This document shows positions 5,723 through 45,785 of a stretch of 64,000 nucleotides of DNA, in pieces. Both the position numbers and the translations under genes were made by a program. Every line of letters begins with the position of its first letter. The first letter of the stretch is position 1. A model generated the notes under the pieces. It did not search any database. It saw only the letters and a program-made list of their open reading frames with translations, and had not been told where the DNA came from. This DNA is from Chiloscyllium plagiosum. Lineage: Eukaryota. Location: assembly GCF_004010195.1 (NCBI RefSeq), contig NC_057710.1, forward strand, positions 94,507,145 through 94,571,144. The letters are read 5' to 3'.

Positions 5723-5724
5723 CC

Positions 5725-7884: not shown

Positions 7885-8007
7885 ATTTTCACAGCTCTGC
7901 CTCCCCTCACTTTGGGAATATTTGAGAGATCATGTCGAAAGGAAAACATGTTGAAATATCCAGAGCTTTACAAGACATCACAGAACGCACTGAATTTCAA
8001 CACAAAG
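7885..8007 (+). CDS. ATP8A1: ATP8A1 internal exon B ([41 protein letters not shown])
   Basis: tgtcag| ... |gtaact; 123 nt. [23 protein letters not shown] is the ATP8A1-type rather than ATP8A2-type sequence as recalled. Confidence 0.96.
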
Positions 8008-21117: not shown

Positions 21118-21430
21118 AGTGGTGCTGGAAAAGCACAACAGGACAGGCAGCATCCGAGGAGCAGGAAAATCGACATTTTGGGCAAAAGCCCTTCGTCAGG
21201 ATAGAGGCAGGTAGCCTCCAGGCTGGAGAGATAAATGGGGGGGTGAGGCTGGGGAGAAGGTAGCAAAGAGAACAATAGGTGAATGGGGGTGGGGGTGGAG
21301 GTCAGAGGGGAGGGTGGACCGGATAGGTGGGAAGGGAGATTGGCAGGTAGGACAGGTCATGGGGACAGTGCTGAGCTGGAAGGATGGAACTGGGGTAAGG
21401 TAGGGGAAGGAGAAATGAGGAAACTGGTGG
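21118..21430 (-). mobile_element. Penelope-like element 3' end (family B)
   Basis: Reverse complement aligns with 17375-17990; CTGACGAa-GGGC-tttt-GCCC-AAAA-tg-TC. Confidence 0.82.
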
Positions 21431-23185: not shown

Positions 23186-24012
23186 TTTGTCATCTCTAAC
23201 CCACTTACAATGCAGATCTAAACTTCAGTGCAGTACTTTGGAGCACACTGACACCTTTCATTGGAACACTGCTGGCAGAGACAGATACCCATCTGATGGA
23301 TACGACCAGACTGCATCTCCAGGCTCCTCAGTCGCTCACTCATTTTGTACCTAATGAGACACTTCATGAACAGTGACTGCATGAATCACTAACCATCCCC
23401 CCACCAAACCCCAGATTCCCAGGTGGCCGTAATGGTGCCAACTAGCCTCTGTTCAACATTTGCCAAATTATTCATGGCGGGGCTTTAAAGATGGCATTGG
23501 TGCCAGGAATCCTAGATTCTAGCAGGGGCCAGAAGCTTGTGGCAAGTGGGAGAATATGACAAGCAGGGCACCATATGGGCTTGGCATATATGTAATGAGG
23601 GGAGTTTGGGAAAATAATGCAAGAAAACACTAGGGCTCATAGTGAAACCATCCATACAAATTGCCAAAATTGACACAAAGCTGATTTTGGATAAGATTCA
23701 GCCCCAAGTGTTAAAAGTTGCAGGATTGGGTTCTTAACAACATTTTGAAGTGCATTTTTTTGTTACTACTTGCATACCAGTGAGCAGGCCTTCAGTTCCC
23801 CAGGACAGATTGTAACATGCTGTAGGCTAAATTACTTGGGTATACTGAAAACTAAGTTAGTGAAAATATTGTACATGCTTTCTAACAAAACCCTTTATAA
23901 GTGAAAGTTAATGTATCTCAGATTCAAAATAATTTTACAGGGTGATGAGTGGTACTTTTTTAAATCCTCTCATGGCTAAGTCAGGATAATGAGTTGAAGG
24001 GGACTTGCAGAT

Positions 24013-24110
24013 GGTCTGAGGAAGCGTCACCGGACCCAAAACGTTAACTCTGATTTCTCTTCACAGATGTTGCCAGACCTGCTGATCTTTTCCAGGAACT
24101 CCTGTTTCTG
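24013..24110 (+). mobile_element. 98-bp PLE-terminal insertion (family C) with hammerhead motif
   Basis: TSD TTGCAGAT at 24005-24012 and 24111-24118; CTGAGGA at 24016; same tail as the PLE end at 58950-59045. Confidence 0.75.
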
Positions 24111-24119
24111 TTGCAGATA

Positions 24120-26620
24120 ATGATGTATCCATTATTCTGCTGATCCATCCTTGTGGGTCGAAGTAGTCATGGGTTTGGAAGGTGTTGTCTAAGGATCTTT
24201 GATGAATTTCTGCAGTGTATCCTGTAGCTTCGGTGATGGAAGGACTGGCTGCTTGTGGATGTCATAGCTATTAAGCGGGCTGCTTAGTACTGGATGGCAT
24301 CAAGCTTCTCGAGTGTTGCTAAGGCTTCATACAAGTAGATGGGGAGTATTACATAGTCGATGGTGAACAGTCTTTGGGAAGTCAGGAGGTGACTTACTCA
24401 TCGCAGTATTCCTAGTCTCTGACTTGCTCTCGTAGCTACTGTGTTTATGTGATAAGCCCAACTGAGTTTCCTGGATGTTAATCCAGGTAAACATCAGAAT
24501 GTTGATAGTGGGGGATTCATTGACATTAGCACCATTGACTGTCAAAGGGTAATGGTTAGATTATCTCTTATTGGCGATAGTCGTTGCCTAGTATTTGTGT
24601 GGTGCGAATGTTACTTGCCACTTGTCAGCCTAAGCTTGGATATTGATACTACATTTAAACATGGACTGCTTCGGTGTCTGAGGAGTTGTGAATTGTGCTG
24701 AACATTGTGCAATCATCAGTGGACATTCCCATTTCTGTCCTTATGATGGAGGGAAGTCATTGATGAAGCAGCTGAAGATGGTTGGACCTAAGACACTTCC
24801 CTGAACAACTCCTGCAGAGATGTCCTGGAGCTGAGATCATTGACCTCCAACAACACAACCATCTTCCTGTGTGTCAGGTGTGACTCCAACAGCAGAGAGT
24901 TTTCTCATTGGTTCCAGTTTCACAAGGTGTCCTTGATACCACACATGATCAAACCTAGCCTTGATGACAAAGGCTGTCACTCTAACCGCTTCTCTGGAAT
25001 TCCATGTTTGAACCAAGGCTGTAGTGAGGTCAGGAGCTGAGTGGCCCTGAAGGAACCCAAACTGGGCATCGCTGAGCAGGTGCTGCTTGATAGCACAGTT
25101 GATGACAACTTCCATCAGTTCATAGATGATGGGACGACAATTGGTTGGGTTGGATTTGCTCTGCTTTGTGTGTACAGGACATACCTGGGCAATTTTCCTC
25201 ATTGTCAATTAGAGAAGGTGCCAAAACAGGTGGATGAAGGTAAAGCGGTTAATGTGGTGTCTATGGACTTCAGTAAGGCTTTTGATAAGGTTGCACACCT
25301 TAGGCCTTTGCACAAAATATGGAGTTTTGGGATTGAAGGCGATTTAGCAGTTTGGACCAGAAATTGACTGACTTAAAGAAGACAGGGTTATGGTTGATGG
25401 GAAATGTTCGTCCTAGAGCTCAGTTACCAGTGGTGTGCTGCAAGGATCTGTTTTGAGGCTACTGCTGTTTGTCATTTTTATAAATGATCTGGATGTGGGT
25501 GTAGAAGGATGGGTTAGTAAATTTTTTAGATGACACTAAGGTAGGCAGAGTTGTGGATAGTGCCGAAGGATGTTGTGGGTTACAGAGGGACATCAATAAG
25601 ATGCAGAGCTGGGCTGAGATGTGGCAAATAGAATTTGATGCAGAAGAGTGAGAGGTAGTTCATTTTGGAAGAAGTAACAGGAATGCAGAGTACTGGGTTA
25701 ATTGTAAAATTCTTGGCAGTGTAGATGAACAGAGAGGTCTGTGTCCTGGTGCATAAATCCCTGAAAGTTGCCACCCAGGTTGATAGTGTTGTTAAGAAGG
25801 CATATGGTGTGTTTATTGGTAGGGAGATTGAGTTTCTGAGCCACAAAGTTATGCTTCAGCACTACAAGACACTGGTAAGGCTGCACGTGGAGAGTTTGTG
25901 CAGTTCTGATCACCATGTTATAGCAAGAATTTAGAAGGTTTGGAAAGGTTCAGAGGAGATTTACTAGGATGTTGCCTGGAATGGAAGGAAGGCCTTGCAA
26001 GGAAAGGCTGAGGGAACCGAGGCTGTTTTTGTTGAAGAGAAGAAGGTTGAGAGGTGACTTAATCCAGACGTCTCAGATAATCAGAGGGTTAGATAGGGTG
26101 GACAGTGAGAACCTTTTTCCACCGATGGTGAAGACTAACACAAGGGGACATAGCTTTAAATTGAGGGGTGATAGATTTAGGACAAATATTAGAGGTAGTT
26201 TCTTCACTCACAGTAGTAGGAGCGTGAAACGGCCTGCCTACAACAGTAGTAGACTCGCCGATGTTAAGGGCATTTAAATGGGTATTGGACATGCATATAG
26301 ATAATAATGGAACGGTGTGGGTTAGATGGGCATCAGATTATTTTCTCAGGTCGGTGCAACATCAAGGGCCGAAGGGCATGTACTGCACTGTAACGTTCTA
26401 TGTTTTATCCTAGTGTTATAACTGTACAGGAACAACTTGATTAGGGGTATGGTAAGTTCTGGAGCCCAAGTCTTCAGTATTATTATCAGAATGTTATTAA
26501 GGCCCATAGTATTTTCAGTATCCAGAGCCTCCAACCATTTGTTGGTATCATGTGAAGTGAATCAAAGTGGCTGAACACTGGTATCTGTGATGCTGGGGGC
26601 CACTAGAGGAGACCAAGATG
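24120..26620 (-). mobile_element. L2/CR1-group LINE RT region, split by a CR1 insertion
   Basis: KSNPTNCRPI...SDAQFGFLQGHSAPDL...VRVTAFVIKARFDHVWYQG; resumes at ~26406 (LKTWAPELTIPLIKLFLYSY). Exact clade uncertain. Confidence 0.8.
25210..26405 (+). mobile_element. 5'-truncated CR1 (RT to 3' end)
   Basis: VDEGKAVNVVSMDFSKAFDKV, GV.QGSVL, DDTK, RRLRGDLI...TRGHSFKLRG; gttctatgtt tail. Confidence 0.92.
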
Positions 26621-27764
26621 GAAAGAATGAATGTAAGGGGCAGGAGAAAGAACAGAATGCCAACAAACATTTTAATGAGAAGCTTCCAAATAAATATAGA
26701 GAACATTTTGTGAAAAATCAGAATTGCTATTTTCTTATAGTGGAGTAAGTACTACCATTAATTTTCCATTTTCCATTCAATTTCATTTTCTAAATTAATT
26801 AATTGAAAATGAGTGGTCCACCTTTAATACTTTGGTTGTACCAGAAAATAACAGATGAACAGAGAGAATGGAACAGCAATTATTTCTAAGCTTTATGAAC
26901 ATCAACTCATATTGCCCAACTCAGCTAATGATCATTTTAGTTGTCTATTTTTCTAATTTATTCCTATCATTTGTAATGCTGGACTTTTTTATTTCTTTAT
27001 TTTTCTATTTTTCCCCCCTAAGTTTTGTACGTTAGAATCTGTACCTAGGTACATTTGTACCTAAAATCACACCATAAGTGACGACTTGTAAAGTTCACAC
27101 TGTACTCATGTGAATACATGTGACAATAAATTCAGTTACTTTCAATTAATATATTAGGAAGCTTATAAGACAGTACATAATCTCTAGTAATTTGACTAAA
27201 CTAATTAAATATAGAAAGACAAATCACTCGTGAATTTATAGCACATCATTATAGGAATAGTTAAATACTGTTATACCTTTTTCCTTTAGAATCAAACGTT
27301 TCTGGACCGGCTACTTTACAAATTATTTTCTGCTTTAGGTTAACAGTTTGGAATGTGTTATAATGACAGATGTACAATTGGTAGTAGAAATTATTTTGCG
27401 TGTGGAGTGTTTGTTTTATATGAAAGCTGGAAGTTTATTGCTTAAATTTAGAACGAGATAGTTCTGATGTCAAAATATCACTTAAATGTAATTACAATCT
27501 CTTAATTGAGCAGTGAGCGACATGTGCGACAGTCCCTGAAACAAATTTAAAAAAGCAATCATATCAAAAGATGCCACTGTGGGCAAATTGTAAAATAAGC
27601 CTAAATTGTTAAAAGATTAAAAGTGGTTGTCAGGAAAACGCCTCATAGTGGTGGTGAGACAAAAAACACACTTAGTGAATTTGAAACCATGATAAAGAGA
27701 AGGGTTAAAGTTCACAGTGCTGGTTTGTTGTAAATGGTTCTCATGGATTTTTCTTTTCCCATAG

Positions 27765-27843
27765 GTTTTCTGGGTTCATTGTTTGAACGGCCTGTTCCAT
27801 TCGGTTATTCTGTTTTGGTTCCCACTGAAAGCCCTCGAGCATG
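27765..27843 (+). CDS. ATP8A1: ATP8A1 internal exon C ([26 protein letters not shown] + G)
   Basis: ttcttttcccatag| ... |gtgagc; 79 nt, phase 0/1; TM7 peptide continues exon B. Confidence 0.96.
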
Positions 27844-29358
27844 GTGAGCAGCATAGACAAACATAAATGTTTAGTGAGATCTTTTCAGATTATCTTATTT
27901 CTTCATGCATACAATCTATGGTTTGTTGAGTTGGTTTTTTCCTCCTAACTGACAAATATGAGATTAAATATTTAATCAACTGTTCAACTTCAGCCTTGTT
28001 TGTCCAGAGCTTAATGTTTCACCAATGTTTATTGGAACAAAAACTCTCAATACTTGCATGAAAGTGAAACAAAACAAAACATAAAAAAACTGTAAAATTA
28101 CTAATGCAGAAAAGTAAATGCTGTGGGTAGTTTGAATGCTTGGGTTTCTATTTTTTTAAAACAATCAATTTGCCATGCATACAAATTTTGCTCAACTATT
28201 TCTTCAGAGTTGGTCTTTACTAAGCTGTGTAAAAACAGCATTATAAGACAGATCAATAGCAGTATAAATTGAGTTTCCTCTTTCAAGCTCTACAGCATTC
28301 CTTTTTAAATGGGAGAGAAGAATGCAAGGGTGACATTGATAAGCTGACAGAGCCCAGCAAAAGATAATTCATTGCTTATGCTGCAACAGTCACTAGGAAA
28401 GCCTGAGTAAAGCAGTTTTTTGTTAGTTTCCTATAAGAAGTTATAAAGTAGGCATTTGGCAATTCATTGACATTTGGTAGATGTGCACCCTGAACACAGG
28501 TATAGTATGGATCTTTAAATCCTGAAATTGGTCCCTTTTTTTGCACCCATAAAATGGTTGCAACTATCCTGTGCCTTCTGGTACCTTTTCTTTTTAATGT
28601 AGAAATTCAAAAGTGGATTTCACCATAATTTTCTACAGTATTCATTCCGTTATCTGGGAATTGTTTCCTGAAAGTTTGTATTTGCAAATGATTTATTCAA
28701 CTTCTTCCATCCTCCCTGTAAATTTGGGCTGCTGCTTGTTTTACTTCCTAAGAAATATTGAAAAAAGTGAATGTTTGCGTGACAGTGGTCTCCTTAGATA
28801 CCTCTAAGGTAGCAAGGTGGTCTTAAGGATCGTTTGAAAGTTAAGGTAAATAGTATCAAATACATTGATGTAATATATTTCATTTATTGCAGCATTAAAA
28901 AAATCAGTCATTGTTTTGCCATGGATATACAAAAGCCTTTGCTGCATTAGATTTATTGTCCAAATTCTCATTAAATGTCTTTAGCTCACTTCTCACTGAC
29001 AGCACATACAAAACTGGCAAGTCTGAATTTCTCAAAATCATTCTTCCAATTTGGTTTAAAAGTTTGAAGAAACATTGCACTGTGCATTTCACTAAAACTA
29101 CCTCAGTGTACAGTAATATGTAAGGATAAAAGAAATTCTGCTGCAGCTATTACATCTTTATTATAATAATCCTGGAGGGACAGTTTCTGTGATGTCCTCA
29201 CAGAATAACTTGGTTCTTCTAAATATCAGATCGCACATTAACTAAGAAAAATCTGCTGCTATGATATGACTAGCAGATGTGGGATTATTTTCTTGGAGCT
29301 TTCAACAACTAATAATTTGAACTGTTGAACTCACTTTAGCATTTTTTGCTTCCTGCAG

Positions 29359-29420
29359 ACACAGCATTTGGAAATGGAAAGACGCCTGGCCGCCTACTAC
29401 TAGGAAATATGGTTTATACA
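29359..29420 (+). CDS. ATP8A1: ATP8A1 internal exon D ([D]TAFGNGKTPGRLLLGNMVYT)
   Basis: ttgcttcctgcag| ... |gtaagt; 62 nt, phase 1/0, restores the frame with exon C. Confidence 0.95.
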
Positions 29421-29687
29421 GTAAGTTAGTTTTGTTATTCCCCATAACCTATTAATGAAGGACTAATTCTTGCATGTGTCCTGCTGAATTTCCACATGCT
29501 TATAACTCTGGTATTAAAAAAGTTGATTGCTTTTGCTTTGCTCTCTTTGTGAAGATTTTCTAAAAACAAAATCTAATGAGCTATTCAAACATATTAGAAC
29601 AGGTGGTATCTGACTGTTGTTTTCTCAGTTTCTAATTAAGAAACAGCAAGTTCAAGTTCTTCGATTGTCCTACAGAACCAGTTTACA

Positions 29688-30150
29688 GGGAAGGCAATGG
29701 CACAGTGGTATTATCTCTAGGCTCTTAATCCAGAGACCCAGGTAATGTTTGGGTAATGACCCAGGTAAAGAAGCGCTTCGCAGGAGGCTCCCAAGCACTG
29801 ATGATGTCGCCTAGCCAGGGGACGAAACGTTTGTAACAAAAACTTCCAGCTCGGCGAACAGAACCACAACAATGTTTGGGGGGCCCAGGTTTAAATCCTA
29901 CCATAAATTCAAAACAAATCTGTAACTAAGAGTCTAATGATGACATGGAACCATTGTTGATTGTTGGAAAATCTATCCAGTTAATTAATGTCCTTTAGGA
30001 AAGGAAACTGCTGTCTATATCTGGTTGGCCTACATATGACTCCAGAGCCACAGCAATGTGGTTAATTCTCACCTGCCCTCTGGGCAATTAGGTTTGGACA
30101 ATAAATGCTGGCCTAACCAGTGGTACACATTCCATGAATGATTTTTTTGA
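29688..30150 (+). mobile_element. tRNA-derived SINE with L2-group-like tail, interrupted by a PLE mini-insertion
   Basis: TGGCACAGTGG A box, GGTTTAAATCC B box; aligns with the uninterrupted copy at 35897-36240. Confidence 0.8.
29798..29831 (+). ncRNA. Putative minimal hammerhead ribozyme (family A-related), inside the 29754-29870 insertion
   Basis: CTGATGA-t-GTCgCC-tagcca-GGgGAC-GAAA-CG-TT; palindromic AAACGTTT helix III; activity untested. Confidence 0.6.
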
Positions 30151-31614
30151 AATTTAAGGTTTAAAATTTAAGATTTAAAATGTTTTTTTTATCTCTCCGA
30201 GGAAAGGCAAAGGCTATTTAATGCACTGAAGCTCATCGCATCTACATTGTTAGCTGAACTGTATTTTGGGCTGCTTTATCTCTACCAGATTTTTGCCAGA
30301 TTATTTAAATCACATTTAACACTTTTTAAAGTTAAGGTACTTATTTAAATGTTTGTTTCCCATAGAAATTCTGTTGTCAACACAATAATCATGTATTTGC
30401 TGTCTCCAGACTGATAAATATTTTTGCCTTATCTTGAATCTTTTTACATCCAAATAATAAAACAAATAAGTCTACAAAGCTACATCTTCTGTTAGCTCTA
30501 ACTTGAAGTATTCTATATACCTTCGTATTGAATTTACCCTGATCCTTTTGATCTGCTTCTTTAACTCAACTGTGATCATTTGCAGCCCATCTCATCCCAA
30601 ATGTCTCAAATTATCTCAATTAGAGTCCATTATTATGAAATGCAGTGTTTATAATATACAAACATGACAATGATGACACCGCATTACCCTACAAATAGCA
30701 ATGAGGTAGATATTCACATAATCCTTTTCAAACAATCAAGTTTCTCAATTACATCAACAGTGGAAAAGTTCTTCCAGCAATTCTGTAAAGAACTTTTGGA
30801 AAGAAAATGCAGAATGCTCGAGAACACAGAATTTTCTGTGCTGGACCTTTGGCAATGAAAATGATAATGGGCAGAATGTTTTCCATGTTTAGGAGCCCTA
30901 ATGGATTCTGAATAAAATTCCCCATTTATAAACAATCTCCAAAGCAGGTATCAGTTGGCAGTGCTAGGAAAAGAAATGTCAAATGGCGCTGTAACAGACA
31001 TCTAACTATTGAAGGACTACAGTTGCTGAAAGTTAACTTCAGCAATAAGGATAGTTCCCTAGCTGTTTTCTACTGAACTTGCAGATCAAAAATGTACAGA
31101 TCTAATGAGTATTTTAAATCTTCAATGATTTGGAAAAATCATATGGAATAGCTTAAAGTTTCTAAATAAATGTTATATAAATAATTTTCTAGTTTCCAAA
31201 TTTAACAAATGCATGGAAATGCACATGAACCACCTTTTTTTTGTTATTTTCTAAAGATATGAAAATGTAATTTTATTTTTCTAAACATACATACCTGGAT
31301 GTTCCACCAATACCACAAAACCACATCAACTCTTAATGCAAAATTTAACTAGCATCCCAGCTAGTTGACTTAATCACCAAAGACAGCACATGAAATTTGA
31401 CCTATCAGCAGAGAAATACGTATTTGAGACACTCTTTTCAAGAATATCTACAGACCTTGCACACACATTCATGATCTTAAGTGGTATTGAGATGATAAGG
31501 TATCCATCCTCTGGAACATGAAAACTCAGAATCACAGTGCAACCAGGACAGTCAAGAAACACTGGCTAGCCAGCGCCACCCACATCCCACAAGTGATTAA
31601 GAAAAAAAATTGTT

Positions 31615-32505
31615 ACGTTGCAGAAGGACGCTGTTGGCCCATTGTGTTTGCACCGGCTCTCTGCACATTTTGACTTCGTGCCAAACTCTTACCTTCTCCC
31701 CCAAGTCTGCATGTTGTTTCTATTTAAATAATCATCCACTGCCTTGAATGCCTCAATTGATCATGCCTCCACTATACTTCCAAACATTGCATTCCAAACA
31801 CTTGCTGTATGAAAAGGTTTTTTTTTCCTTAACTCGCATTTGTTTCTTTTGCAAAATGCTTGAAGACTGTGCTGTCTGGTACTCTATCATTTTACTAGCA
31901 GGAACAGACTTGCCTTACCGACTTTGTGCAGACCCCTCATGATTTTGAAAACTTTTAGCAGGTTTCCCCTTCTTGCTTGCTTCTCTCCAAAGAAAACAGT
32001 CACAACTTCTCCAATCTATCCTCATAATTGAAGCTTCTCGTCCCTCAATTTTTGTGAACTTCTGCATTCTCTTAAATGCATTCACATCCCTACCAAAAGT
32101 GTGGTGCCCAGAACAATGCACAAACTCTCAGCTATATATCAAGAAAAGCAAGGATCTCAGGGGATTCCACTGCAAACCTTCTTTCAGCCCAAAAATACCC
32201 ATAAACATTACACTTTGTTTCCTAAACTCAGACTTTCTTAAAAAAAAACTACGCTGTGTTTCTTTATTCCATAATTTGCATCTGTCATGTGTCACTGTAT
32301 CAAATACCTTTTTTAATGTTCATGTACACCTCATCAACAACTTTGCCCTCATTAACTCTTTGTTACCACTTCAAAAAAACTCCAGTCAGACACAATTTTC
32401 CCCAAACAAACCCATGCTGACTCTTATGAATCAATCTGCACTTTTCCAGGTGACTATTAACTCTATTCCCAATAATTGTTTCTACAAGTTTCCCTACCAT
32501 CTCTG
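31615..32505 (-). mobile_element. Degenerate CR1 RT/3' end
   Basis: Minus-strand CR1 3' UTR and CSGHHT/RDVNAFKRMQ remnants. Confidence 0.7.
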
Positions 32506-32927
32506 ATCTACATGTCATCTTGAATTCTGAGATTGCTTTTAATAGATTCAGGTCCAGAGGATAATTAAGCTTTCAACTGCTGTGTAAACTTATGATGTTC
32601 ATGCAGTAATTCATCTCGTTATCTTTTGAGGGGAGAGCATATAATAAACCAGCTTGTAACCGGAAAGTTTGTCAAAGACTGAGCTAGCCATTCACATTGA
32701 TTTTTCAAGTGTATGAAATCATTAAGTTTCCTGTATGATTTATCTTTAGTGGGTGCATCATATCTACAGAGGCACATGAGTTGAATATTGATTTCCCTTA
32801 GTGGATGGACCATTGTTTGGATTGCAGTCTCGCAGGATAGTGCTACACGTGTGCCCTGCAGTATCCTGCACATGTGGCAGAAAGCAACCAGAACCATGTT
32901 GCTTTAAGACCAGAATCACACTAGTTC

Positions 32928-33144
32928 CCAAATGTCACAGAGAGCATAAATTGTAAGACTACATTTAATGTAGTATTTGAGCAGTTTAGCTTGAAGCACA
33001 GCTCATTCTGGAGCACAGATCTTCAATACAATAGCTGAGATGCTCTAAGAGCTCATAGCTTTCACATAACTGAGCACTCAATCATTTCTTAATACCATAT
33101 TGAGTCACCCAATTTGACTGAAAACTGATAACTGTGACATTTGG
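32928..33144. repeat. Imperfect palindrome with 13-bp perfect inverted ends (MITE-like)
   Basis: CCAAATGTCACAG (32928-32940) / CTGTGACATTTGG (33132-33144), with further internal inverted similarity. Confidence 0.55.
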
Positions 33145-33971
33145 CACCTCAGGAGGGCACCAAAATGAATCATTCACTCGTCCATTGTAGCTGAAGATAT
33201 CTACAAATGCTTCCACCTGGTCTTTTTCAGTTACGTGCTGGGGTCACTCGCATTCTTGTGGTGGAATCAATTCCTCAGTTAATTATTTACCACTATGCAT
33301 AGAATGTAATCACACAGCAGAACATTGATATGATCTGTTAGTTGTGAGATCACTTAGTTCTGCTGCAACTCTTCAGCATGTGTGTAGGTTTCTGTTGAAA
33401 CCTCGCCAGATGTGATGTCTGATTCTGAGGTTTGCCTAATACTGCTCTTGGCATGTTCTCCTACACTCCTCATTGAGCTGGAGTTGATGCCTGTTTTAAT
33501 ATTGCTACCATAATGACATAGAATGTCCTGTTAAGTCAGGTGCTGCTTCTGGAGGGCTGCAGATATCCAGTGTCATGCATTTGGCACAGCTCTTTGAGAC
33601 AAAGACCTTTAATCCTGATTGAATCAGAGTTACAGTCAAAACAGGTGGGCCAGTGCCAACAGCTGAGTGCTAGTTAATGACTGTGGAACCTGACCAGTTT
33701 GCACCCAAAGGTTTCTATCTTCACTGGAGATAAAATGCAATGCCCAAGTGAAAAGTCTTTGGGTTAGGAAGAGAAAGGAAGGGAAGTGGGCATGGACTAA
33801 AAATTAGGGCCAGACTGTATAGGAGAGATGTTAAGAAGCACATTTACACACAAAGGGTGATAGAGGTTTGGAACTTTCTTCTACAAATGGCAAATGATGC
33901 TAGATCAGTTGTTAATTTCAAGTCTGAGATAGGTAAATTTTAAATTAAAGTGAAGACATTAAGAGATATAG

Positions 33972-34069
33972 AAGTAGAGTGGTGCTGGAAAAGCACAGGC
34001 AGTTCAGGCAGCATCCGAGGAGCAGTAAAATCGACATTTCGGGCAAAAGCCCTTCATCAGGAATACCTG
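33972..34069 (-). mobile_element. 98-bp PLE-terminal insertion (family B)
   Basis: TSD ATTAAGAGAtATAG (33958-33971) / ATTAAGAGAaATAG (34070-34083). Confidence 0.85.
34033..34060 (-). ncRNA. Putative minimal hammerhead ribozyme, intact core (family B)
   Basis: Minus strand CTGATGA-a-GGGC-tttt-GCCC-GAAA-tg-TC, giving a GUC cleavage triplet. Confidence 0.65.
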
Positions 34070-35562
34070 ATTAAGAGAAATAGGCCAAAGGCAGGTAAAT
34101 GGTGTTAGGCTACAGACCAGCTATGATCACATTTAATGGCAGATCTTGCTTGAGGATCTGAATGGCCTACTCATGTTCCTATATTCTTATGAAATGCACA
34201 GTCTTTAAGTAAATATACATAATTTAGAATAATGCTGCACTCATTAGCTGGATGAAGTTCCAAGAAAGATTTTGATAATGATTCTGCTCACACAAACGCT
34301 GGTCAAGATGTCGACCTTTAAGAGTAATATTGTCTGCTTACTTTCACCCAACCACCAGCAGTATTTTATTTAGCAAAGGCATTGTAAATATTTTATAATC
34401 AACATGTTCAGAGATGGTATAACACACCTCTGGAGCAGATGGGAATTGAAACTGGGTCACCTGGTCCAGAGCTAGGGATATGGGCATTGTAATCTGGTAC
34501 CAGCTGACAGTGAAAGGGGAAGTAAATGTAACTTGTTACCTGAAAACTTCATCTGATGTGATTGACACATGTCAATTGTGAGAGTAGTGGGATGCACACA
34601 AGATTTGTCAGGGAACTGATCCCAGAGCTGCCTGCAAGAGTGAGAAATTCCAAACTGTTGGAATTGAAATTTTTGTTTCTGGATAATTGAACTCTATCTT
34701 TTTAATTTTTTTCCCCAAACTTCTGTATCATCTTGGCTGCCACCTCCAGCTCTGCCAAAACCTGGAGAGAATATCTCAGGAAGACGAGGAAATGGCTATC
34801 AGTAAGATGACCAGAAGCAGGCTCAGGATGTTTTCCACTGTCCTGCTGGCCAGTCAGTGGAGTGGCAGGGTTGAGCAGGTCAGGAGGATGTGAGGATGTT
34901 GGTCTTGATGAGGTCTTGGGAAGAAAGCTTTTTGTTTGTTGTGGAGGAGCTTCACTGAGTGACCTATTACCAGGAAAGTACAAACCTTTGCCGAAACATA
35001 TAGTATAGAAAATAATATTTTTTACAAAGTACTTTAAGGACATGCACTCATATGATGTATAGATTGTTTGGTCAATAATATGCAAATTTTAATTATGTAT
35101 AAACTGTTGCTATGCTGCTTTATCGCATTCTTTCTGGCATCAAGGCTCAGGTTCATTTTCAAGAATTTTTCAATGTAACCTTTCATGAGATATGGACATG
35201 TCTGACAAGGCCAGCTTGTGTTCTCCATCCCAGTTGCCCTTGAGAAGGGCAGTTGGCCTTGATCCTTTGACAACTGGTCACCCAACTTGAAGGTTCCTTT
35301 GTCCAACTGACCCACTGGACCATTCCTTCACTCACTTGCCTTTTCACCCACTCGCCCTTGCATCAACTTATTCACTAATTCATTCAGTGAAACATCTAAT
35401 CTTTAAAGTTTTTTATCAGAAAACAGCTGTTACTGTCAAAACAGGAGGTGGGGAAGGTTTGTACTCTCCTTGCCCAACTCTCCTGTGTTCTCAAGACTTA
35501 TCCTAGAGTGCCTAAGCTGCCCATTTCTGATTCAGCTGGGATCAGAAGCTCCCAGAGGAAGT

Positions 35563-35764
35563 TAAAAATCACACAACACCAGGTTATAGTCCAACAGGTT
35601 TAATTGGAAGCACACTAGCTTTCGGAGCAACGCTCCTTCATCAGGTGATAGTGAGGAGCGACGCTCCGAAAGCTAGTGCTTCCAATTAAACCTGTTGGAC
35701 TATAACCTGGTGTTGTGTGATTTTTAACTTTGTACATCCCAGTCCAACACCGGCATCTCCAAAT
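35563..35764. mobile_element. Palindromic PLE-type mini-element (family D) with hammerhead motif
   Basis: ~75-bp inverted arms plus a one-sided tail; TSD CAGAGGAAGT at 35553-35562 and 35765-35774. Confidence 0.85.
35616..35644 (-). ncRNA. Putative minimal hammerhead ribozyme (family D)
   Basis: Minus strand cac-CTGATGA-a-GGAGC-gtt-GCTCC-GAAA-gc-TA-gtg; cac/gtg can form helix I. Confidence 0.65.
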
Positions 35765-35896
35765 CAGAGGAAGTAGGCAGTGTTGCAAGGTCAGAAGGAA
35801 CTTGGACAGCAGTAATGCACCTAGCCTTGCTCGTGACCACAAGAACATGACTTTAATTTCCTAAGTTTGGTTCAGTAATTTCTGTGGATCGCTAAT

Positions 35897-36240
35897 GGGG
35901 AGGTGATGGCCTAGTGGTATTATCGCTAGACCATAAATCCAGAGACACAGGTAATATTTGGGAGACCTGAGTTTGAAATCTACCAAGGCTTGTAGTGGAA
36001 CTTGAATTCAGTAGAACTCTGGAATTAACAGTCTAATGATGACCATGAAACCATTGTCAATTGTTGGGAAAATACCCATCTAGTTCAGTATTGTTCTTTG
36101 GGGAAGACAACTGGTCTGGCCTACATGTGACTTCAGAGCCACAGCAATGTGATTTACTGTCAACTGCCCTCTGGGCAATTAGGAATGGGCAATAAATGGT
36201 GGCTTAGATAGTAATGTCCAGATCACATGAACGAAGGAAA
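35897..36240 (+). mobile_element. tRNA-derived SINE (same family as 29688-30150)
   Basis: TGGCCTAGTGG A box; tail gggcaattaggaatgggcaataaat; degenerate copies at ~20470-20600 and ~51000-51360. Confidence 0.8.
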
Positions 36241-38066
36241 AGTATGATAGCTATATTCTTACATGCGGCTGTACCCAAATTGAAAATACCGGATCATTGA
36301 GATAAGACAAAGAGGTAGACAGCTGAAACCTGAGTCAAGCAAGTTTAGTACAATAACAAAAATTGAGATAAGGACCTGAGATAAAATATGAGCTCTGGTA
36401 CGTAACCAGAAAAGGAAACAAAAGGGATATACAGCAAGTGGAACATTTGTGACATTGACGTACTGGGAATTGTGATGGGAAGCTGCAGTTGATGAGTCAG
36501 AAATTTCAACTCACTGCTGGGAAATATGAGAGGATAAGAGCTGTTACCCTGCAGCACCTTCAAATGCCATTGTACATGTCAAAGTCCATCATTCACTTAG
36601 TCCAGTATACCACAAAACAGCTGAAAATCTTGGAAGAATCTGTTAAAAGCACTGCTAAAAATATTAACCACCACAAGATTCACTGAAGTCATTTATTACT
36701 CAACGTAATAAGTCTCCATCCCTCAAAGGTGAATTATTCTGGCTGCTCAGAGGGCCAGTACACTCTAAGGTTACACAAAGTGCTGCCTGTCAGAGAAATT
36801 TAAAGCAGTTGTGATCACAGATACACATCTTAAAAACCTATCCAAACAATGACTCCAGTGATACAAAACCTGTTGTGCAAAGTGTGTAGTCAGAGACAAA
36901 AACCCAGCAATTCCTGAAAAAAAATGCAAATGTTCAAACTATTAACAATGAAGGAAACCTAGATTGTTGATTGCTATCTTAATATCAACAGTCAATAGTG
37001 CAGTGCAATTTTCATTCTGAAATTTTATTTATCAGGATTGAAATGTCTCTGTTTAAGCAAAGTGAACTTTATTTCTTTTGAGCAGAGCTTTTTTTAAAAA
37101 AAAAAATCACTTTTTCAGTCAATGGATCTCTGGGCTAACAACTAGACTGAGTGTAGTAATTAATATTTCTTTAGTGTTCTCAGCCTTTCTTAATCAGACA
37201 CAAAGCTTCTGATGTATTGGTTGAAAAGTCATCTCTCCCTTGTGTTTTCTGCAATTGAGCACTATGAAGAGAATAACAGTGAACAAGTGACAATTGCACA
37301 GGAAGAGTGTTGTCGTAGCCTCAAGGGATTGGGAGGAGAATTACTGAATTACATCTGGAGGGAAGAAGTCAGCATTGTGCTCAGGAAACCTTAACCCATT
37401 ACTTTCATTACACTGCTGTTTGAAATGTTAAACTTCAAAGAATTTTGAGAGCTTTAAACTTGAACATTTGTTCAGAAGAAGAAGAAAAAAAAATCACATT
37501 TCTGAATGTTGCCAGAATTATGCACAGAATATCTGCAGGGGTTCCAGAAGTCACTTGCTGTAGTTTAAGGTGGGCGTTGGCAGGTGGAACCCACCAGAAG
37601 AGGGCGGGGTCCTGATGAAACTGAATTTTTGCCATATTTGTTATAAATGAAGCTACATCTCTCTCAACCTCTTGCAAGGTATTTTTCTTCAGGGTGGAGA
37701 TAGAGGCAGGGATTCACAAGATCAGGTGTACCATGTGTTGAGCTGGTGGCTGATGCGGCAGGCTAGCTTACAACTGAGCCAAAGGGAATATGACAGTCAG
37801 AGCTTTGGCAGGTTTACTTTTTATGGGTCACCTGAAGATCGGCTGATATTAGTGCTTTCATATGCATGTCAGGAATCCTTCACTAAAACCTATAACTTGC
37901 AGCAGGGTTATCAGTGAAAGGCAGTATTGTTCTGAGGGATTTGGGATCTGTTTGTACACAGGAATCAACACTTTATATTTATCATGCTAACAACATTATT
38001 TTGGTGAATTTTATGTGACCAAAGTACAGAGTCGATTAACATTTATGAATTTTGTTCTCTCCACAG

Positions 38067-38123
38067 TTTGTGGTCATCACCGTTTGCTTAAAAGCTGGTT
38101 TAGAGACCTCATCCTGGACTCTT
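38067..38123 (+). CDS. ATP8A1: ATP8A1 internal exon E (FVVITVCLKAGLETSSWTL)
   Basis: ttctctccacag| ... |gtaagt; 57 nt; TM8 end. Confidence 0.96.
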
Positions 38124-38334
38124 GTAAGTAGAGATAATCCATGAACTAATCCTAAAAATGAACATCAAACAAGTTTAGAAATCACATCATTTTGTTATTT
38201 ATGATTTGTTTGTCACTACAATCAAGAAGAAACTATGCATGTTTCAGACTTGTATTAATAGGCATAACATTTTACGCAGTTTGTCATTATAATGAGCAAG
38301 CAGAGCAAGAATTGTACTTATCGCTACGTTTTCA

Positions 38335-38620
38335 GATCAATGAAGGGATTAAGAGCAAATAATAATTTAGCCATCAAGGATCTGGCTGTGACACAGTCAC
38401 AGAATAAAGGACACACTATTTAGAACTCAAACGAAGAAGAACCTATTCACTCATAGCATGATGAAGTTTTGAAATTCTCTACCTGACTGATCAATGCTAA
38501 TCAGTCATTACGTAAGTTCAAGACTGAGTTTGATAGAGCTGTGGTTAATAAACCAAGATCTAAAATGACAGAGCAGGCTCGAGGGACTGAATGGATTTCT
38601 CCTGCTCTTATGTTCCTAAA
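38335..38620 (+). mobile_element. Degenerate CR1 3' end
   Basis: ...gcaggctcgagggactgaatggatttctcctgctcttatgttcct terminus. Confidence 0.65.
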
Positions 38621-41333
38621 GACTATGAGATCTCCCAGTGAAGCTTGATTTGATTTCGAACTTCCATTAGATCTCATCATGGGAAATACCTTTCCTTATT
38701 TTGCATTTCACTCCTTTGCAAATAATGTGGAAATGTTAGCCCTCCGGTTTCTAACTTCGTTCAACCTACTTCTCACTTGCAATGCCACCAACGTTCAAGC
38801 AACTTGGCAGCAATCCAGACAAAGCAGCTCACTTGATCCACAAGCATTCACCCTCTCCTTTACTGATATTCAATAGCAAGCACCATCTACAAAATGTAGA
38901 AATTCACCAAGGCTCCTTCCAAACCCATGACCACTTCCATCCAGAAGGATAAGGGCAGCAAGTACATGGGAACACAATCACCTGCTTGAAATGTGCTGTC
39001 TAAGGAGCCTTGGTGAATTTCTGCAGTGCCCTGGAGATGGCGCGCACAGCTACTACTGAGCATCAGTGGTGGAGAAAATATGCATTTGTGAATATGGAAT
39101 TAATTACCATAGTGGGCTGCTTTGTCATGGTTGTTGTTGAACATTGTGTTATTTAAGTTGCACTCATCGAGGCGAGTACACAGTAAGTTGAACAAAATCA
39201 ACCAAAAGAAAATCAGAAAAATACTGCGCCATGCAAAAGAGTTTGTAAGAATGTGAATTGCGCTGTCTCGTAAGCCATAGGTGAAGAATCAATTTACAGA
39301 AATGAAGAGAATTTAGAAAGCTGGAGTATTCAGGATATGGAGGAAATGAGAAGAATTGGATTTAACAAAGGAGCTACGAAGTTGGCAATATGGTTTATTT
39401 TCTGCTGCCTTGTGTGGAACAGTATCCTACAGCACTTTGTGTTTCAAGGGTCTTGTTCACCAACCAACGGTTGTTATCACTTCACCAAAAATGCATTGCC
39501 TCACTTTCTTAGATTCAGACCCTGTTTGAGGGGCATTTCCAGTTAACTACTCTCTCTCTCTGTTGGGTTATTGTCATGATCTCAGAGGAACCACGTCCAC
39601 AGGGAACATAGGCTGAGGAATTAAGGTTACAATTTTGAGGTTATAACTTCAATCCATGCCCCTTTGAATGTAACATCCCTGTCATGAATGCAGATTTTGG
39701 AATTAGCTATCTCTCTGGACTTTTCCCATTTATGTTAATCTCCTGCCCTCCAGAATGTTTGGTGTGAAGAAGCAAAGGTCACACCAACCCCATACTGGTT
39801 AAGACTGCACAGTCCTAAGCTTTTGGCAATTTCCCAAATGGAGTAATATTCTTCAGGAAAATAGAAATTTGTCCACCCAGATCAAGACAATATGCTCCCA
39901 GTGTGGGTTAATTAACTTCTGTCTTTACTTCATACGCACACTCTCCAGGAAATGTTCTGTGGAACTAAAATGTAACAGGATTTTGGTCTGTGGTGTTAAA
40001 AATTATTACACCAGTCCTTTATGTCCATTGCTAAAACTCTTTTCTTGTATGAACCGCGCCATCTTCTCATTCTAGGAAAGAGTTCTCACCGGTTTTATTT
40101 TTGCTTTAATTAAAAGGAACATATGTTGTCAACCATAATGAAACCAGATTTTTATGCATGAGCTGTTTTTCCCATCAGAATTTTATTATCTTTTTGGAGT
40201 TTCACGGTGCCTGTGATTTCTATTATATAGCATTCAGAACAAACTTACAAAAAAGCTCTGAAGTGTAGTGCTGCAAACAAAATTTGAATAGTTTGAACTA
40301 AATAAAACCCTATTATTAATTATACGGTTTTTAACAAATAAACAGAGTAATCTTTTGATTATTTTGATTTACAACTGCTGTGAGATTCAAAAGATATACT
40401 TACTCAGCCAAATGTAGATAGTTGTAATAAATTATGAGCATCCTCCTTTCAAAATAAAACTCTTGCTGATTCAGCTTGCCTTTTTGGAGGGAATTAATGC
40501 AGATCTGGGAAGCAAAAGCAAAAATACAAAGTGCTTGAAGCACTTGGGTCAGTCAGATTTTGTGGATTGAATGCATGTTAATATTTCATATATAAACCCT
40601 TCCTCCGAACAGGCAGATATAACAAATGGATGAGCAATTAAAAAGTAGAGTGAAGGGAAAAGTACTGATAGATATATCTTAAGGCATAAGAGTGAACTGA
40701 TTATGTGAATAAATGGCCAAATGGTGATTCCTTGAGACAGGAGTCATAATAAGGAAAATCAAATATATTAAAGGCATATATGAGAAACTAAGAACTAAAT
40801 GTATTTTCTGCATGGATAGATGGAAAAGGCATTAGAAATGAAAGCATGAAAAATGACAAGGTAGAACTAGCTGATATGGCCTAGAAGGTGAGAATAAAGT
40901 AGCAGGTTTGACATCAGGAGTGCAAACTGCTCTATCAACACACTGTAACAAAGGGTCACTATCTCATGCACCATGCTGTTTCTTACTCAACTAGCACACC
41001 ACGTAAAGCTGAGTATTTTCCAATATTATAATACAGTCCATGCTGAGACCGAGAACTGCAAAGTGCCTCATGCTGTTCCTTTTCTCTGTTCGTATTTTTT
41101 AAATTACTATTATTCTTAATATTTCCAAGTCAGAAAGTGAATCCAGAACCGAAATGTCAATTCTGCTTGTATTAAATGATCTGATGGGTGCTTCTAGCTT
41201 TTTTTTTCCATTCTGGAAATTACTTAAAACAACCTTTAATGTGACATTGATTTTTGCTATCTGAACTCCTTTCCTGTTACATTTTGAGTGCATTTCCTTG
41301 TTACTATTATTATGACTCACTGGGGTAGCACAC

Positions 41334-42287
41334 TGTAAATCGAACCCCACTGTTCCTGGCATCTTACCAAATGTTAAAGTTTTTTTTTTAAAAGTACACA
41401 CAGTACCCAGATGTACCTGACTTTCAGACCAAGGTTAATAGAAAGCACAGACTTGGTTTCTGTATGAAACAGCAATTATTATTTATTGTAATTAATTAGA
41501 CTATAGCTGGAAATAAACATATACCAACCATTGGCACATACTTCTATTAACTAAAAATCTAATCCCCTTATGAACTCCTCCTTTTTCACACACACACAAA
41601 CACAAATGCGCGCACACATGGGAAAAATAGATTATTGGTGGAGATTGAAAAACTGGGAAGTCGGTCCTGAATCTGATGTTGAGATTATCCTCTGTTGGCT
41701 GCCCAGACTGCTTTGTTCAGATGTCTTTCTCGAGATGCTTTTACTGGTTTATAAGAAGTACAGAGTAATTGATTCACTTGGAAAATGTCTCTGATCTGTC
41801 AGTTCACAGGTCACAGATATACTGCTGCAGAAAAGGTGACTGGTTTTCTCCAAGTTTAAACTGAGTTTTTGACTGCACAGTACAGTCAGCTTCTGAGCTG
41901 TGACAAGATCTGCAAGCTTTCTCTCTCTTTTTTCCAGCTCCAAGTTGCTCGGCCATCCATGAACCGATCACACTGTTGTTGGCAAGCTAAAGTCTCTGCC
42001 ATTGATAATTGTCACAATCCACAATCTAATTGTCACAATTGACCAATCAATTACTTGTTTTCAGGAAGAGCTGCACCAGTACACGCTGTTAGCTTTAGAT
42101 CATTTGCAATCTGAACTTCAATTACTGTGTTCAGTTCAAACAGATGTTTGTAATACCTACTATTGATATCAGATTACTTGCTTTTGAAACTGTAGCCACT
42201 CTTTCGAACATTAGTTTTAAAAATTTCTTTCTCATTTCAACCCCCAGTTTTTAAAAAAATGCAAAATAAAAATACATGGTCCTTACA
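41334..42287 (-). mobile_element. Possible solo LTR
   Basis: TGTAA...TTACA ends and a minus-strand AATAAA, but no TSD found. Confidence 0.3.
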
Positions 42288-42729
42288 CTTTGATAGTTGT
42301 ATGACCAGAATGCATTGACAGTATGAACAGGAAAAGAATTATAATCTATTAATCACAAATTGCTAAAAGGATGTTATCAGCTGACATTCGTGTTTGTACA
42401 CGCTCACAATATATCAACCTCCTTTATAGACAATTGGCAGAACTTTGATTTCAGTGCTAAAGAGACCAACTTGCAGGTAATGTGAAATCACAAGGGAAGA
42501 TAGCAGCTTAAGGGTGAATTCACACACCAGTTTTAATGGCAAGGTTATCACTTTGTTCCATGTTTGAAGTTGGTTTGTGAATAGACCATTTTAATTGATG
42601 TGCTGGCCTGAAATTTTGAAATCCAACATGGCAGGTGGTTTGAGACCTAAACGCAGAGTACAGTGAGAATCTGATTGGGTTGGGTCCCACGGGAAGTATT
42701 GAGCAAACATTAAAGGGAACGTGTTTTCA

Positions 42730-43195
42730 CATAATTGCTACTGTACAAAGGAAGGCTCATTATGCCTGCATCAGATCCTCAAACCAGTATCATTATCTTT
42801 GGCCAATCTCCTGTATAATTCCCCCTTTCCCTTGTGCACTTTATCCAAGAAATCACACATTTGAACCTGCCTCCATCACATTTCCAGGAAGTGCATTTCA
42901 TATCCTGACCACTCACTATGTAATAAACTTTTTACTCACTTCACTTTAAATCTATGCCCTCTTGTTATTTTACAAGTGGGAACTGTTTTTCCTAATCTTA
43001 TCTATCCAGCCTGCTCATGATTTTGAAAACCTCTGTCGAACCTCCTCTCTCCCGCCTCCTGTCCAAGGAGAACGATTCCAAATTTTTCAGTCCATTCTCA
43101 ACTGAAGTTTCTCATTCATGGAACCATTTGTGTAAATTGCTTCTGTATTCTATCTAATGCATTCACATTCCTTCTATAATGTGGCTCTCACAACT
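42730..43195 (-). mobile_element. Degenerate CR1 3' end
   Basis: Similar to 31615-32120. Confidence 0.65.
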
Positions 43196-43235
43196 TGTTA
43201 AATGACTGATTAGTAATATGGTCAATTCTAGACAC

Positions 43236-43367
43236 TCCTGATGAAGAGCTTATGCCCAAAATGTCTATTCTCTTACTCCTCAGATGCTTCCTGACCTGCT
43301 GTGCTTTTCCAGTGCCACACTTTTCAACGTTGATCTCCAGCATCTGCAGTCCTCACTTACTCTTCCA
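43236..43367 (+). mobile_element. 132-bp PLE-terminal insertion (family B) with damaged hammerhead
   Basis: Imperfect TSD CAATTCTAgAcAC (43223-43235) / CAATTCTAaAtAC (43368-43380); CTGATGA at 43238. Confidence 0.75.
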
Positions 43368-43984
43368 CAATTCTAAATACCAAAGTCAGAAAGGCTTTGA
43401 AAGGTGTATAGAGGAGGTTTACTGGAATGGTACCAGCATGAGGAATTTCATTGTGAAGAGTTTGCAGAGCTGATGTTGTGAAGGATAAAAGGAAATGTGA
43501 TAGAGAAATGAATTAAACGACATCCAGTGTCAGAAGGGTCAGTAGCCATGGCTTGTATATTTAAGGTGATTGGCAAAGAATCTGGTGATAATGTGAGGGA
43601 ACACTTTTTGTTAAAACGTCCAGAAATTTGTTTTGATTTGGAATGTACTGCTGCAAAGCATGGTGGAAAATACTTAATAGCATTTAAAGCAATGTTATAA
43701 ATGTTTGAAGGGAAGTAGTTGCAGGGTTACAAAGAAAGAGCAGGCCTTCCTAAGATTCTTTGAAAGAGTTAGCTGAGGACAATGAGCTGAACAGTCTAGT
43801 TCTGTGCCATGTCTTTCTATGAAGTAATTATCTTTCTTGCAGGCAATATTAACAAGAAAATATTCTTTACTTCAAAAATTGACACAGCATTTGTGTGCCA
43901 AATTTGTTGTTGTCTTCTTAAGCAGTCCCTCAAGAGAACTGACTTTCACTCCACAGTTATGATTTAAATGCTTGATCCACACAA

Positions 43985-44145
43985 ATAAAAGCAAAATATT
44001 ACAGATGCTGGAAATCTGAAATAAACACAAAATGTTGGAGAAACTTAGCAGGTCTGTTAACATCTATGGAGAGAGAAACAAAAGTAATGTTTTGAGTTCA
44101 AATGAAACCTTTTTCAGAAATGTTCTGAAGAGGAGTCATAAAACA
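43985..44145. mobile_element. Old family-C-like PLE terminal repeat with inversion
   Basis: acagatgctggaaatctgaaat... then TTCAGAA-atg-TTCTGAAGAGG inversion centre; related copies at ~44785-44965 and ~40510-40610. Confidence 0.55.
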
Positions 44146-45785
44146 AATAACTGTTCACTAAGTAGCAAACTTAGAAGTCCCATTTTGGGTATGATCAGGA
44201 GATAGTAACCAAAATTCCATTGTTTAGGTTACAGTTCACATTTTCAATAAAATTAATTTGCACAATCATAACCTTAAAATATTCAGTGGACCACTCCAAT
44301 TGTGCAGTCTGATAGAATGTAATTGATTCCATTAACGTTTTCATTTTTTTAAAGTGTGTATGCCTTGATATATTTGTGAGAGATAATGGGATACAGTTTT
44401 ATTAACACAGTTAGAAATAGGCTTATCACCAATAATAATCATTTTGTCGAGTCCTCCACCTGTGAGTAATCTGATTTAACATGATTAAAAAACTTTAAAC
44501 TCTTTAACACTTCTATTCTGCCCATCCAGTGTAGATAGTTTTAATCAGACTGTTCAAAATGTTATGATACATATCTAGGGCAGGTTGGGTTTGAACCCAG
44601 ACCTTCTGCCCATCTGATAAATGTTGGCATTTACACTTCAGACTAGTCTCCTTACATTTTATCTCTCTCAACTTCACCTATCATCATAATGTATGACCCA
44701 TTTCCACATTCCTCCCCTCTTGACTAAAGAAATTTCTCCAATCTATTTGTAATTATCCTGTATTTTTAGAAACACAAAGCTAAACTACTGCAGATGCTGG
44801 AAATCTAAAACAGAGTACAAAAGAAATATTTGGGCCTGGTAACATCTGTGAACAAAAATATGAGGATTTGTATTTCAGGTTGATGATCAAAGTCTGAGGA
44901 AAGGTTATGAACATGATATGTCAATATGTATTTTTTCACAAAAAAATCTCCAGTATTTTTGTACTATGTTTCCTCAATGTTTATAATCTTACATGTGGAA
45001 GCATTGCTTCCCCATTTACCCTGCTCAGCTGTTAAAGATCTCCAATAAGTCACCCTGAAGTCTACTCTTTTTTTTTAAAGATGAAATCTTAACGAGAGAA
45101 TCTTGGCAATAGCTGTGATCTCTCAATTCCAATACCGTCCTTATAACTTTTTTTCCCAGTGCTTCTATATCCTTTTCATAAATTGGAGACAAGAACAGTG
45201 TGGGCCACTACTTTAGTGTACACTAGTTGGTTTCTTAGAAACAAGTCATCTTTGATATATGGAGATGTTTTAAAGCATGCTTAATTACTGCCTTTATACC
45301 TAGGGAGGTAAACACAATTTGCACAGCCTTACCTTGTTGTTGCAGTTGACAAATGCAATAATTTCAACTTCAGTTTGTAACTTGATCATGACAAATTTTA
45401 ATCTTCAAGCGATGGAAAAGATCGCTGAATGTGATTGTAGGTGCTTTGCATAACTCAATCATGTTTAAAACTCTCTAATCTTTTGTGTGTTTCAACCAAT
45501 TGCATCCAATTACACAAACATTGCTGGCAGAAACTACCTCCTGTTTAGAATTTCACTACAAATTGTGACCAGATAAAATCTTTCCTTTCTGCCTATAAAC
45601 AAGCAAATAAAATTAAGTTGTCTAAAAGCTGCTAGTTTGAATCTCAACTAAACAGCAAAGCATGAGAATAAACACATTTTTAATGTTATGTCTGCATCAT
45701 AAATGCACTATGTTGATATGTAGTATATTAGATAATTTTACTCTATAATCTGGTAAGGTGATCTTGATATCTTTTTTTTCACTAG

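Follow-up and report, generated by a model that had tools for sequence, protein, structure and literature searches.

What are the short ribozyme-bearing inserts in a 64,000-nt stretch of the shark genome of Chiloscyllium plagiosum (NC_057710.1, forward-strand positions 94,507,145 to 94,571,144; the whole stretch is termed the window), and how were they made? An earlier reading from the letters alone (the sequence-only reading) had described four small units, each composed of a hammerhead ribozyme (HHR) and a short tail. These were proposed to be either extreme, stereotyped truncations of Penelope-like elements (PLEs) or a non-autonomous class resembling short interspersed elements (SINEs) or retrozymes. 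The mobilisation of PLEs is poorly understood and the role of their hammerhead is open. The inserts are short PLE copies, not a separate ribozyme element or a new class. The three Neptune-type inserts are probably run-off cDNAs of the first 90-130 nt of the element mRNA, of a kind inserted solo or head-to-head.

Element positions were counted from C3 of the CUGANGA core (C3 = 0; minus values are upstream). Insert 1 was assigned to family A, insert 2 to family B, and inserts 3 and 4 to family C/D. For an unbiased genome sample, 80 x 10 kb were taken from 19 large contigs, each piece placed at a round coordinate, which gave 779,990 non-N bases. This is approximately 0.02% of the 3.56-Gb assembly; genome-wide figures are extrapolated from it and rough. 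Profile searches of the sample gave 156 C/D, 71 A and 17 B arms that reached the tail. The core test required the hammerhead core plus stem II pairing. Public sequencing runs X21 (reads), X9 and X1 (contigs) were also aligned. These are possibly from a species other than that of the window, and contigs cannot show RNA starts.

All four inserts were found where they had been placed, and their target-site duplications (TSDs) were re-read in the sequence (Table 1). For the unit at 29754-29870 the insert and TSD are real, and the element proper begins only after filler derived from the flank. Among the genomic loci examined, three of the four inserts had host-sequence paralogues in which the TSD is present only once: one for insert 1 (L246; gap -7 against an expected -8), three of seven at exactly -10 for insert 2, one of three at exactly -14 for insert 3, and none for insert 4. 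The proposed hammerhead motif was read as CUGANGA-N-stem II-RAAA-NN-UH at 24016(+), 29798(+), 34060(-) and 43238(+), with two of the cores decayed. AAAA replaces GAAA and stem II is mismatched in inserts 1 and 4, which failed the core test; inserts 2 and 3 passed. The Rfam scan recommended as a check brought up no hammerhead anywhere in the window, even with the threshold at E<=10; minimal HHRs are expected to escape it. The inserts had been ascribed to three unrelated PLE families, and this did not hold: inserts 3 and 4 belong to a single family (83% over 87 nt), to which insert 1 is related (75% over 61 nt). Insert 2 was separate from families A and C/D in pairwise sequence comparison.

On sequence grounds, the inserts fall within the endonuclease-bearing (EN+) PLEs, which encode a reverse transcriptase (RT) together with a GIY-YIG endonuclease (EN) at the C terminus. 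Insertions of EN+ PLEs are described, in the accessible parts of the sources, as 5'-truncated copies with a pseudo-long terminal repeat (pLTR), an inverted 5' copy and an optional 30-40 bp tail (PMC8557442, PMC3846280). A minimal HHR in the pLTR, the optional tail and the inverted 5' copy are all present here. The C/D open reading frame (ORF) matched RVT_1 on L426 (E 1e-8), its EN was read from sequence only, without a Pfam match, and a CX4CxxC linker lies at the end of L349 frame 0. A CX2-5CxxC linker ahead of the EN is associated with Neptune elements in the available text of PMC8557442. Families A and C/D were named Neptune-type, C/D because of this linker; the family A linker was read by eye at window ~58320-58345 and is not confirmed. 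No CxxC linker was visible ahead of the family B GIY-YIG, and we take this family to be Poseidon-type by resemblance.

The short units align colinearly with long A and C/D copies. When young C/D copies were walked upstream, the tail passed directly into the 5' untranslated region (UTR) and then the ORF, with an ATG at +162; the hammerhead and tail thus constitute the leader of the C/D element. Among the genomic loci examined, no such tail-to-ORF continuation was found for family A or B. The walk yielded one near-full-length C/D copy (L426), with a rearranged 5' end and a 533-nt gap, and no intact master copy. L349 was considered as a full-length copy with a 5' hammerhead and rejected, its hammerhead being an independent short pair. 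In L426 (oriented 1576-2433) a long stretch of the C/D ORF, lying between the N-terminus and the RT, is rich in Ala/Thr/Pro and of low complexity, and contains short tandem repeats.

Copy ends were plotted in the unbiased sample, as the sequence-only reading had advised, and Neptune-type 5' ends clustered at the 5' edge of the hammerhead. For C/D, 83 of 156 arms began at -15 to +10, 7 at -41 to -16, 32 beyond -40 and 34 inside the unit. The corresponding numbers for family A were 36, 3, 7 and 25 of 71. Family B gave 4, 1 and 12 of 17 for the first three classes. Profiles built from long copies only kept the step, with depth rising from 38 to 98 and from 14 to 49 between -20 and 0, and placed the family A mode at -4. 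Tail-only queries returned 15/29 C/D copies starting at -18 to +9 and 15/29 A copies at -7 to 0. A TSD score of at least 8 was reached in this tail-only set by 11/29 C/D and 6/29 A copies, against 6/500 shuffled pairings; for solo C/D edge arms of the unbiased sample, TSDs were found in 8/32 against 5/400 in the control.

The 3' ends of A and C/D fall in two tail classes. An inverted partner accompanied 46/81 C/D and 12/35 A edge arms. Head-to-head pairs joined one long and one short tail in 34/36 (C/D) and 10/11 (A) cases, long-long pairs did not occur, and the junctions varied from copy to copy. Two long C/D bodies, L410 and L425, carry an inverted 5' arm that is exactly a short unit (-2 to +95 and -1 to +125, respectively). 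L130 is a tail-to-tail fold-back whose centre falls within the ORF start of an element related to C/D; its polarity is opposite to that of the usual pairs.

Edge arms occurred at approximately 150 per Mb, in agreement with the very high genomic copy number that had been predicted. Rough extrapolation to the genome gives ~0.5 million edge arms out of ~1.1 million arms overall. The core test was passed by 43/88 C/D, 3/41 A and 9/16 B arms. A footprint of the ribozyme cleavage site was sought as 5' ends at +28 to +30: 13/156 C/D arms began at +26 to +36 with no sharp peak, and family A had none, so that such a footprint is not supported.

To relate the boundary to the RNA, 39 C/D copies were picked solely for possession of the ORF start. 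Eighteen began at -13 to +10 (10 of these at -4 to -1), two at -26/-33, and 19 at +30 to +140, of which three lie at assembly gaps. Beyond -40 there were 0/20 of the ORF-start copies passing +10 against 32/122 tail-ending C/D arms (Fisher p 0.007). The hammerhead edge is thus likely to be the RNA 5' end, predicted at ~-4, since ORF-start copies begin there and none of the 39 extends beyond -33. In the public runs a main loose-end position on the 5' side fell exactly on -4, with 152 reads in X21, 37 contigs in X9 and 72 in X1. The family A profile has TATAAA 29 nt before an A at -4. The boundary may accordingly mark a transcription start, with a TATA-like box ~30 nt upstream and an initiator (Inr)-like A at -4.

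The fixed 5' boundary, the two 3' classes, the TSDs, the intermixing of short and long copies described below and, for C/D only, the continuation from tail to ORF all back the proposal that these inserts are run-off cDNAs. The PLE protein would prime reverse transcription at one of two internal sites on its own mRNA. Transcription starting at ~-4 would put these sites 90-130 nt from the RNA 5' end. The cDNA would be copied back through the uncleaved hammerhead and run off the RNA 5' end, giving exactly a hammerhead and a tail. Priming of one target strand would leave a solo stub, and priming of both strands at the two start sites may give the long-short head-to-head pair. Template jumps could account for the longer copies, as could a downstream tail on tandem RNA produced by read-through. 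The stubs themselves would be dead ends. For the anole PLE PAc in vitro, the available text of PMC11167929 reports a tail defined by two internal RT start sites, nicking and extension of both target strands, and uncleaved RNA as the main template. The 'stereotyped truncations' of the sequence-only reading are therefore retained for the two Neptune-type families as stereotyped short copies, better read as the first 90-130 nt of an RNA than as truncations towards its 3' end.

Family B is a case of ordinary truncation. Its best genomic matches are 96-100% identical. In a set of 64 arms from 59 loci, a few of them duplicate rows or rows ending at gaps, 5' ends were scattered from +7 to beyond -521 with only 4/64 at -15 to +10, and 3' ends fell into two classes near +73 and +112. 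A smooth length distribution had been named in advance as the sign of plain truncation, and these scattered ends are what was found for the unit at 29754-29870. Insert 2 is a young Poseidon-type PLE shortened at its 5' end by plain truncation. Three family B arms, that of the window included (L061, L075, L086), start at -31/-32, 22 nt after TATAAA, which is possibly a minor preferred end.

Several observations count against run-off from an RNA starting at -4. Family B has a canonical TATAAA at -53 and yet shows no pile-up, so run-off is not general. The C/D ends are spread over -10 to +6, and one ORF-start copy of the sample, L159, reaches -64. Ends called from profiles are blurred by a few nt. 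As a TATA-like box, C/D has only the weak, T-rich TTTTATC. TSDs of solo A edge arms in the unbiased sample (2/21 against 14/400 in the control) were not clearly above chance. Among the genomic loci examined no 5' body of family A was found, and the ORF-start test covers C/D only. The aligned public-run reads and contigs contained no position at which many molecules begin, and no RNA 5' end was observed in them. Between 97 and 98% of aligned X21 reads continue into unrelated flank, and these reads are therefore taken to derive from copies embedded in other transcripts. Alignment of family A to public runs gave clear 3' ends and no clear 5' loose-end peak among the matches listed. Finally, for Penelope of Drosophila virilis the accessible parts of two papers describe an internal promoter that lacks TATA, and a hammerhead located downstream of an intron (PMC2377424, PMC4209133).

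The main rival to run-off is termination set by structure or sequence, in which RT primed from the 3' tail of a long RNA would usually stall or drop off immediately after stem I or on entering a pyrimidine/C-rich tract, leaving the stubs as stereotyped 5' truncations. We consider this unlikely. It would account for a boundary that falls, in each of the two families, on stem I's first base, for the C-rich upstream sequence and for the absence of an observed RNA start in the public runs. A local stall should leak equally in all copies, whereas reads far past the boundary were confined to tail-ending arms in the ORF-start comparison (32/122 against 0/20, p 0.007). A stop after a hairpin, rather than before it, is also atypical, and family B shows no pile-up at a similar hammerhead.

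An RNA 5' end produced at -4 by processing, through a splice acceptor or cleavage, is less probable again. It finds a parallel in D. virilis, where the available text of PMC4209133 puts the intron's 3' end at the 5' end of helix I, and family A has a pyrimidine tract and an AG at -4/-3. Most family A ends, however, include the AG (mode -4), C/D has no AG there, and the stubs have no upstream exon in common. The hammerhead cuts downstream (+28 to +30) and so cannot make an end at -4.

Equally improbable is a separate non-autonomous class, SINE- or retrozyme-like, transcribed alone and re-mobilised in trans by PLE RT and EN. Its attractions are a very high copy number with fixed ends and TSDs of its own (11/29 C/D and 6/29 A against 6/500), and a preprint that, in its accessible part, derives retrozymes from pLTRs (10.64898/2026.07.22.740005). 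A tree was made from 63 C/D rows (36 short, 27 long; 128 columns), restricted to long-tail, well-scoring arms of this family. Short and long copies intermixed, with 16 label changes of which at least 7 were forced by well-supported branches; 0% of bootstrap trees held one short clade, and the youngest subfamily contains both lengths. Label clustering was slightly above that of shuffles (16 against a mean of 20.7; 6/500), which probably reflects the choice of some long rows by similarity to one window copy. Only 5/116 edge arms without an inversion flag shared upstream sequence, which speaks against a common head and against head-to-tail arrays. Arrays of the retrozyme type were not seen in the unbiased sample, 0.02% of the genome; a few tandem jump products were noted. 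Nor was a Pol III-derived head or promoter of the SINE type found: the units begin at hammerhead stem I and consist of PLE sequence only, solo or head-to-head. The stubs also lack the upstream TATA-like region, and the head-to-head junctions differ between copies. The separate class envisaged as the second option is thus not supported.

A profile artefact, in which other families share only the hammerhead and tail, is scarcely tenable: A and C/D do cross-match in the tail, and it is largely refuted by the ORF-start copies and by the boundary kept with long-only profiles and tail-only queries, with upstream flanks that are unique or inverted arms and TSDs that abut the boundary in many copies.

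Profiles of the window gave 14 arms of the A, B and C/D families and four of a further family, in keeping with the dozen or so motifs counted earlier. Longer coding PLEs had been reported at three places. The longer copies exist, and a GIY-YIG match was obtained only at 19271-19606(-) (PF01541, E 1e-5); no Pfam EN or RT match was found in the scanned frames of 17300-18030 or 57520-59045, both of which are decayed. Two TSD-flanked head-to-head pairs of a further hammerhead family (GAAA-GC-UA type), at 35559-35766 and 63670-63910, form near-perfect hairpins, the second with a short tandem expansion at its centre. An Rfam match to MIR845_1 at 35598-35691 was rejected, the sequence being a head-to-head hammerhead pair. 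Another short repeat, presumably SINE-like, has copies at 17429-17690, 13823-14038 and 9795-9996, the first of which interrupts the long C/D copy.

Table 1. Window coordinates of the four inserts, their target-site duplications and further PLE copies.
Feature	Position	Strand	Description
Insert 1 TSD	24005-24012 / 24111-24118		8/8 match; first bases of 3' copy also resemble element tail
Insert 1	24013-24110	+	Neptune-type family A, -3 to ~+95, short tail class; core 24016, G12 lost
Insert 2 TSD	29744-29753 / 29871-29880		10/10 match; within host repeat
Insert 2 filler	29754-29766		13 nt non-element, repeats neighbouring flank
Insert 2	29767-29870	+	Young Poseidon-type family B, -31 to +73, short tail class; intact minimal HHR core 29798
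Insert 3 TSD	33958-33971 / 34070-34083		14 bp, 1 mismatch
Insert 3	33972-34069	-	Neptune-type C/D, -4 to ~+85, short tail class, plus ~5 extra nt; core 34060
Insert 4 TSD	43223-43235 / 43368-43380		13 bp, 2 mismatches
Insert 4	43236-43367	+	Family C/D, ~-2 to -6 through +126, long tail class; core 43238, G12 lost
Longer C/D copy	17323-18030	+	End of EN region, 3' UTR, HHR, long tail; other repeat inserted at ~17429-17690
Longer C/D copy	21118-21462	-	-262 to +81
Older Poseidon-type copy, inverted head-to-head	19086-20204		GIY-YIG remains
Long decayed family A copy	57834-59050	+	Homology back to ~57520
Further short family A arm	53490-53644	+	Profile match
Further short family A arms	43988-44119, 40498-40612, 44771-44880	-	Profile match

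If most Neptune-type insertions are run-off copies of the first 90-130 nt of the mRNA, the genome would hold a base-resolution record of where the RNA starts and of both RT start sites, and the outcomes of rapid amplification of 5' cDNA ends (5'-RACE) and of in vitro target-primed reverse transcription (TPRT) would be exactly predicted. Solo and opposite-strand minimal hammerheads would be explained without a retrozyme or SINE class. Repeat annotation is affected in any case by ~150 such arms per Mb in this genome.

A bolder proposal, which we regard as rather unlikely, is that Neptune-type PLEs replicate through a strong-stop-like intermediate, with an RT start in the 5' UTR, run-off at the cap and a jump to the RNA 3' end. 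Hammerhead cleavage would leave a terminal redundancy of ~30 nt (-4 to +28), like the retroviral R region. Hundreds of thousands of stubs would then be failed transfers, the PLE hammerhead would gain a job, and TPRT elements would be linked to strand transfer of the long terminal repeat (LTR) type. Composite C/D insertions were also seen (L096, L391, L285, L159 and L426), in which a piece of the ORF start is joined through microhomology to a hammerhead-tail unit, a pattern read as template jumping at the boundary or close to it. In L096 (-8), L391 (-5) and L285 (+5) the jump leads from the edge of the hammerhead to elsewhere in the RNA.

In LTR retroelements, minus-strand strong-stop DNA is a short cDNA that is primed near the RNA 5' end and runs off it. 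The stubs would share these properties. They would differ from it in being target-primed and integrated directly, with no tRNA primer or integrase, and strand transfer is only hypothesised here.

Comparisons with PLEs and retrozymes refer to the accessible parts of the sources. The inserts resemble EN+ PLEs (Neptune, Penelope/Poseidon) in their GIY-YIG/RT parent ORF, pLTR hammerhead, two 3' classes ~35-40 nt apart, inverted arms with a tail on one end only, 8-16 bp TSDs and TATA/Inr-like pLTR motifs. Variable 5' truncation is described for those elements, whereas most Neptune-type insertions here share one 5' boundary with ORF-bearing copies. As Cervera and de la Pena (2014, PMC4209133) describe for the minimal hammerheads of metazoan PLEs, helix III is absent, 15.2-16.2 is palindromic and an unpaired base precedes stem II. 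Those motifs are likewise mostly solo or on opposite strands and were read there as truncated PLEs. That study counted ~4,000-9,000 motifs in coelacanth and Xenopus with unit ends unmapped; here 55/145 core-covering arms in 0.78 Mb pass a looser test. PAc, a Poseidon element of Anolis (Frangieh et al. 2024, PMC11167929), likewise has two internal RT starts in the 5' part of the unit, extension of both strands and an uncleaved template. In vivo run-off stubs from a 5'-proximal site are not proposed in the available part of that account, and the Poseidon-type family here has no pile-up. Non-LTR retrozymes (PMC7229834; 10.64898/2026.07.22.740005) are also non-coding, of high copy number, related to PLE pLTRs and equipped with a type I HHR. 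They form head-to-tail tandems with mostly canonical HHRs (PMC7229834) and circular RNAs, whereas the units here are copied from the element's own 5' UTR and stand singly or head-to-head. A literature search outside subscription journals found no run-off stubs, shark PLE hammerhead units, or fixed 5' boundary shared with ORF-bearing copies; Fig. S2 of PMC11167929 (insertion ends) may bear on this novelty. Minimal hammerheads, solo or on opposite strands, were already known, as were tails and inverted pLTRs (PMC4209133, PMC3846280, PMC8557442, PMC2377424, PMC7229834, 10.64898/2026.07.22.740005). The feature is real, a variant among the PLE insertion products already known, and it offers a mechanistic lead that can be tested.

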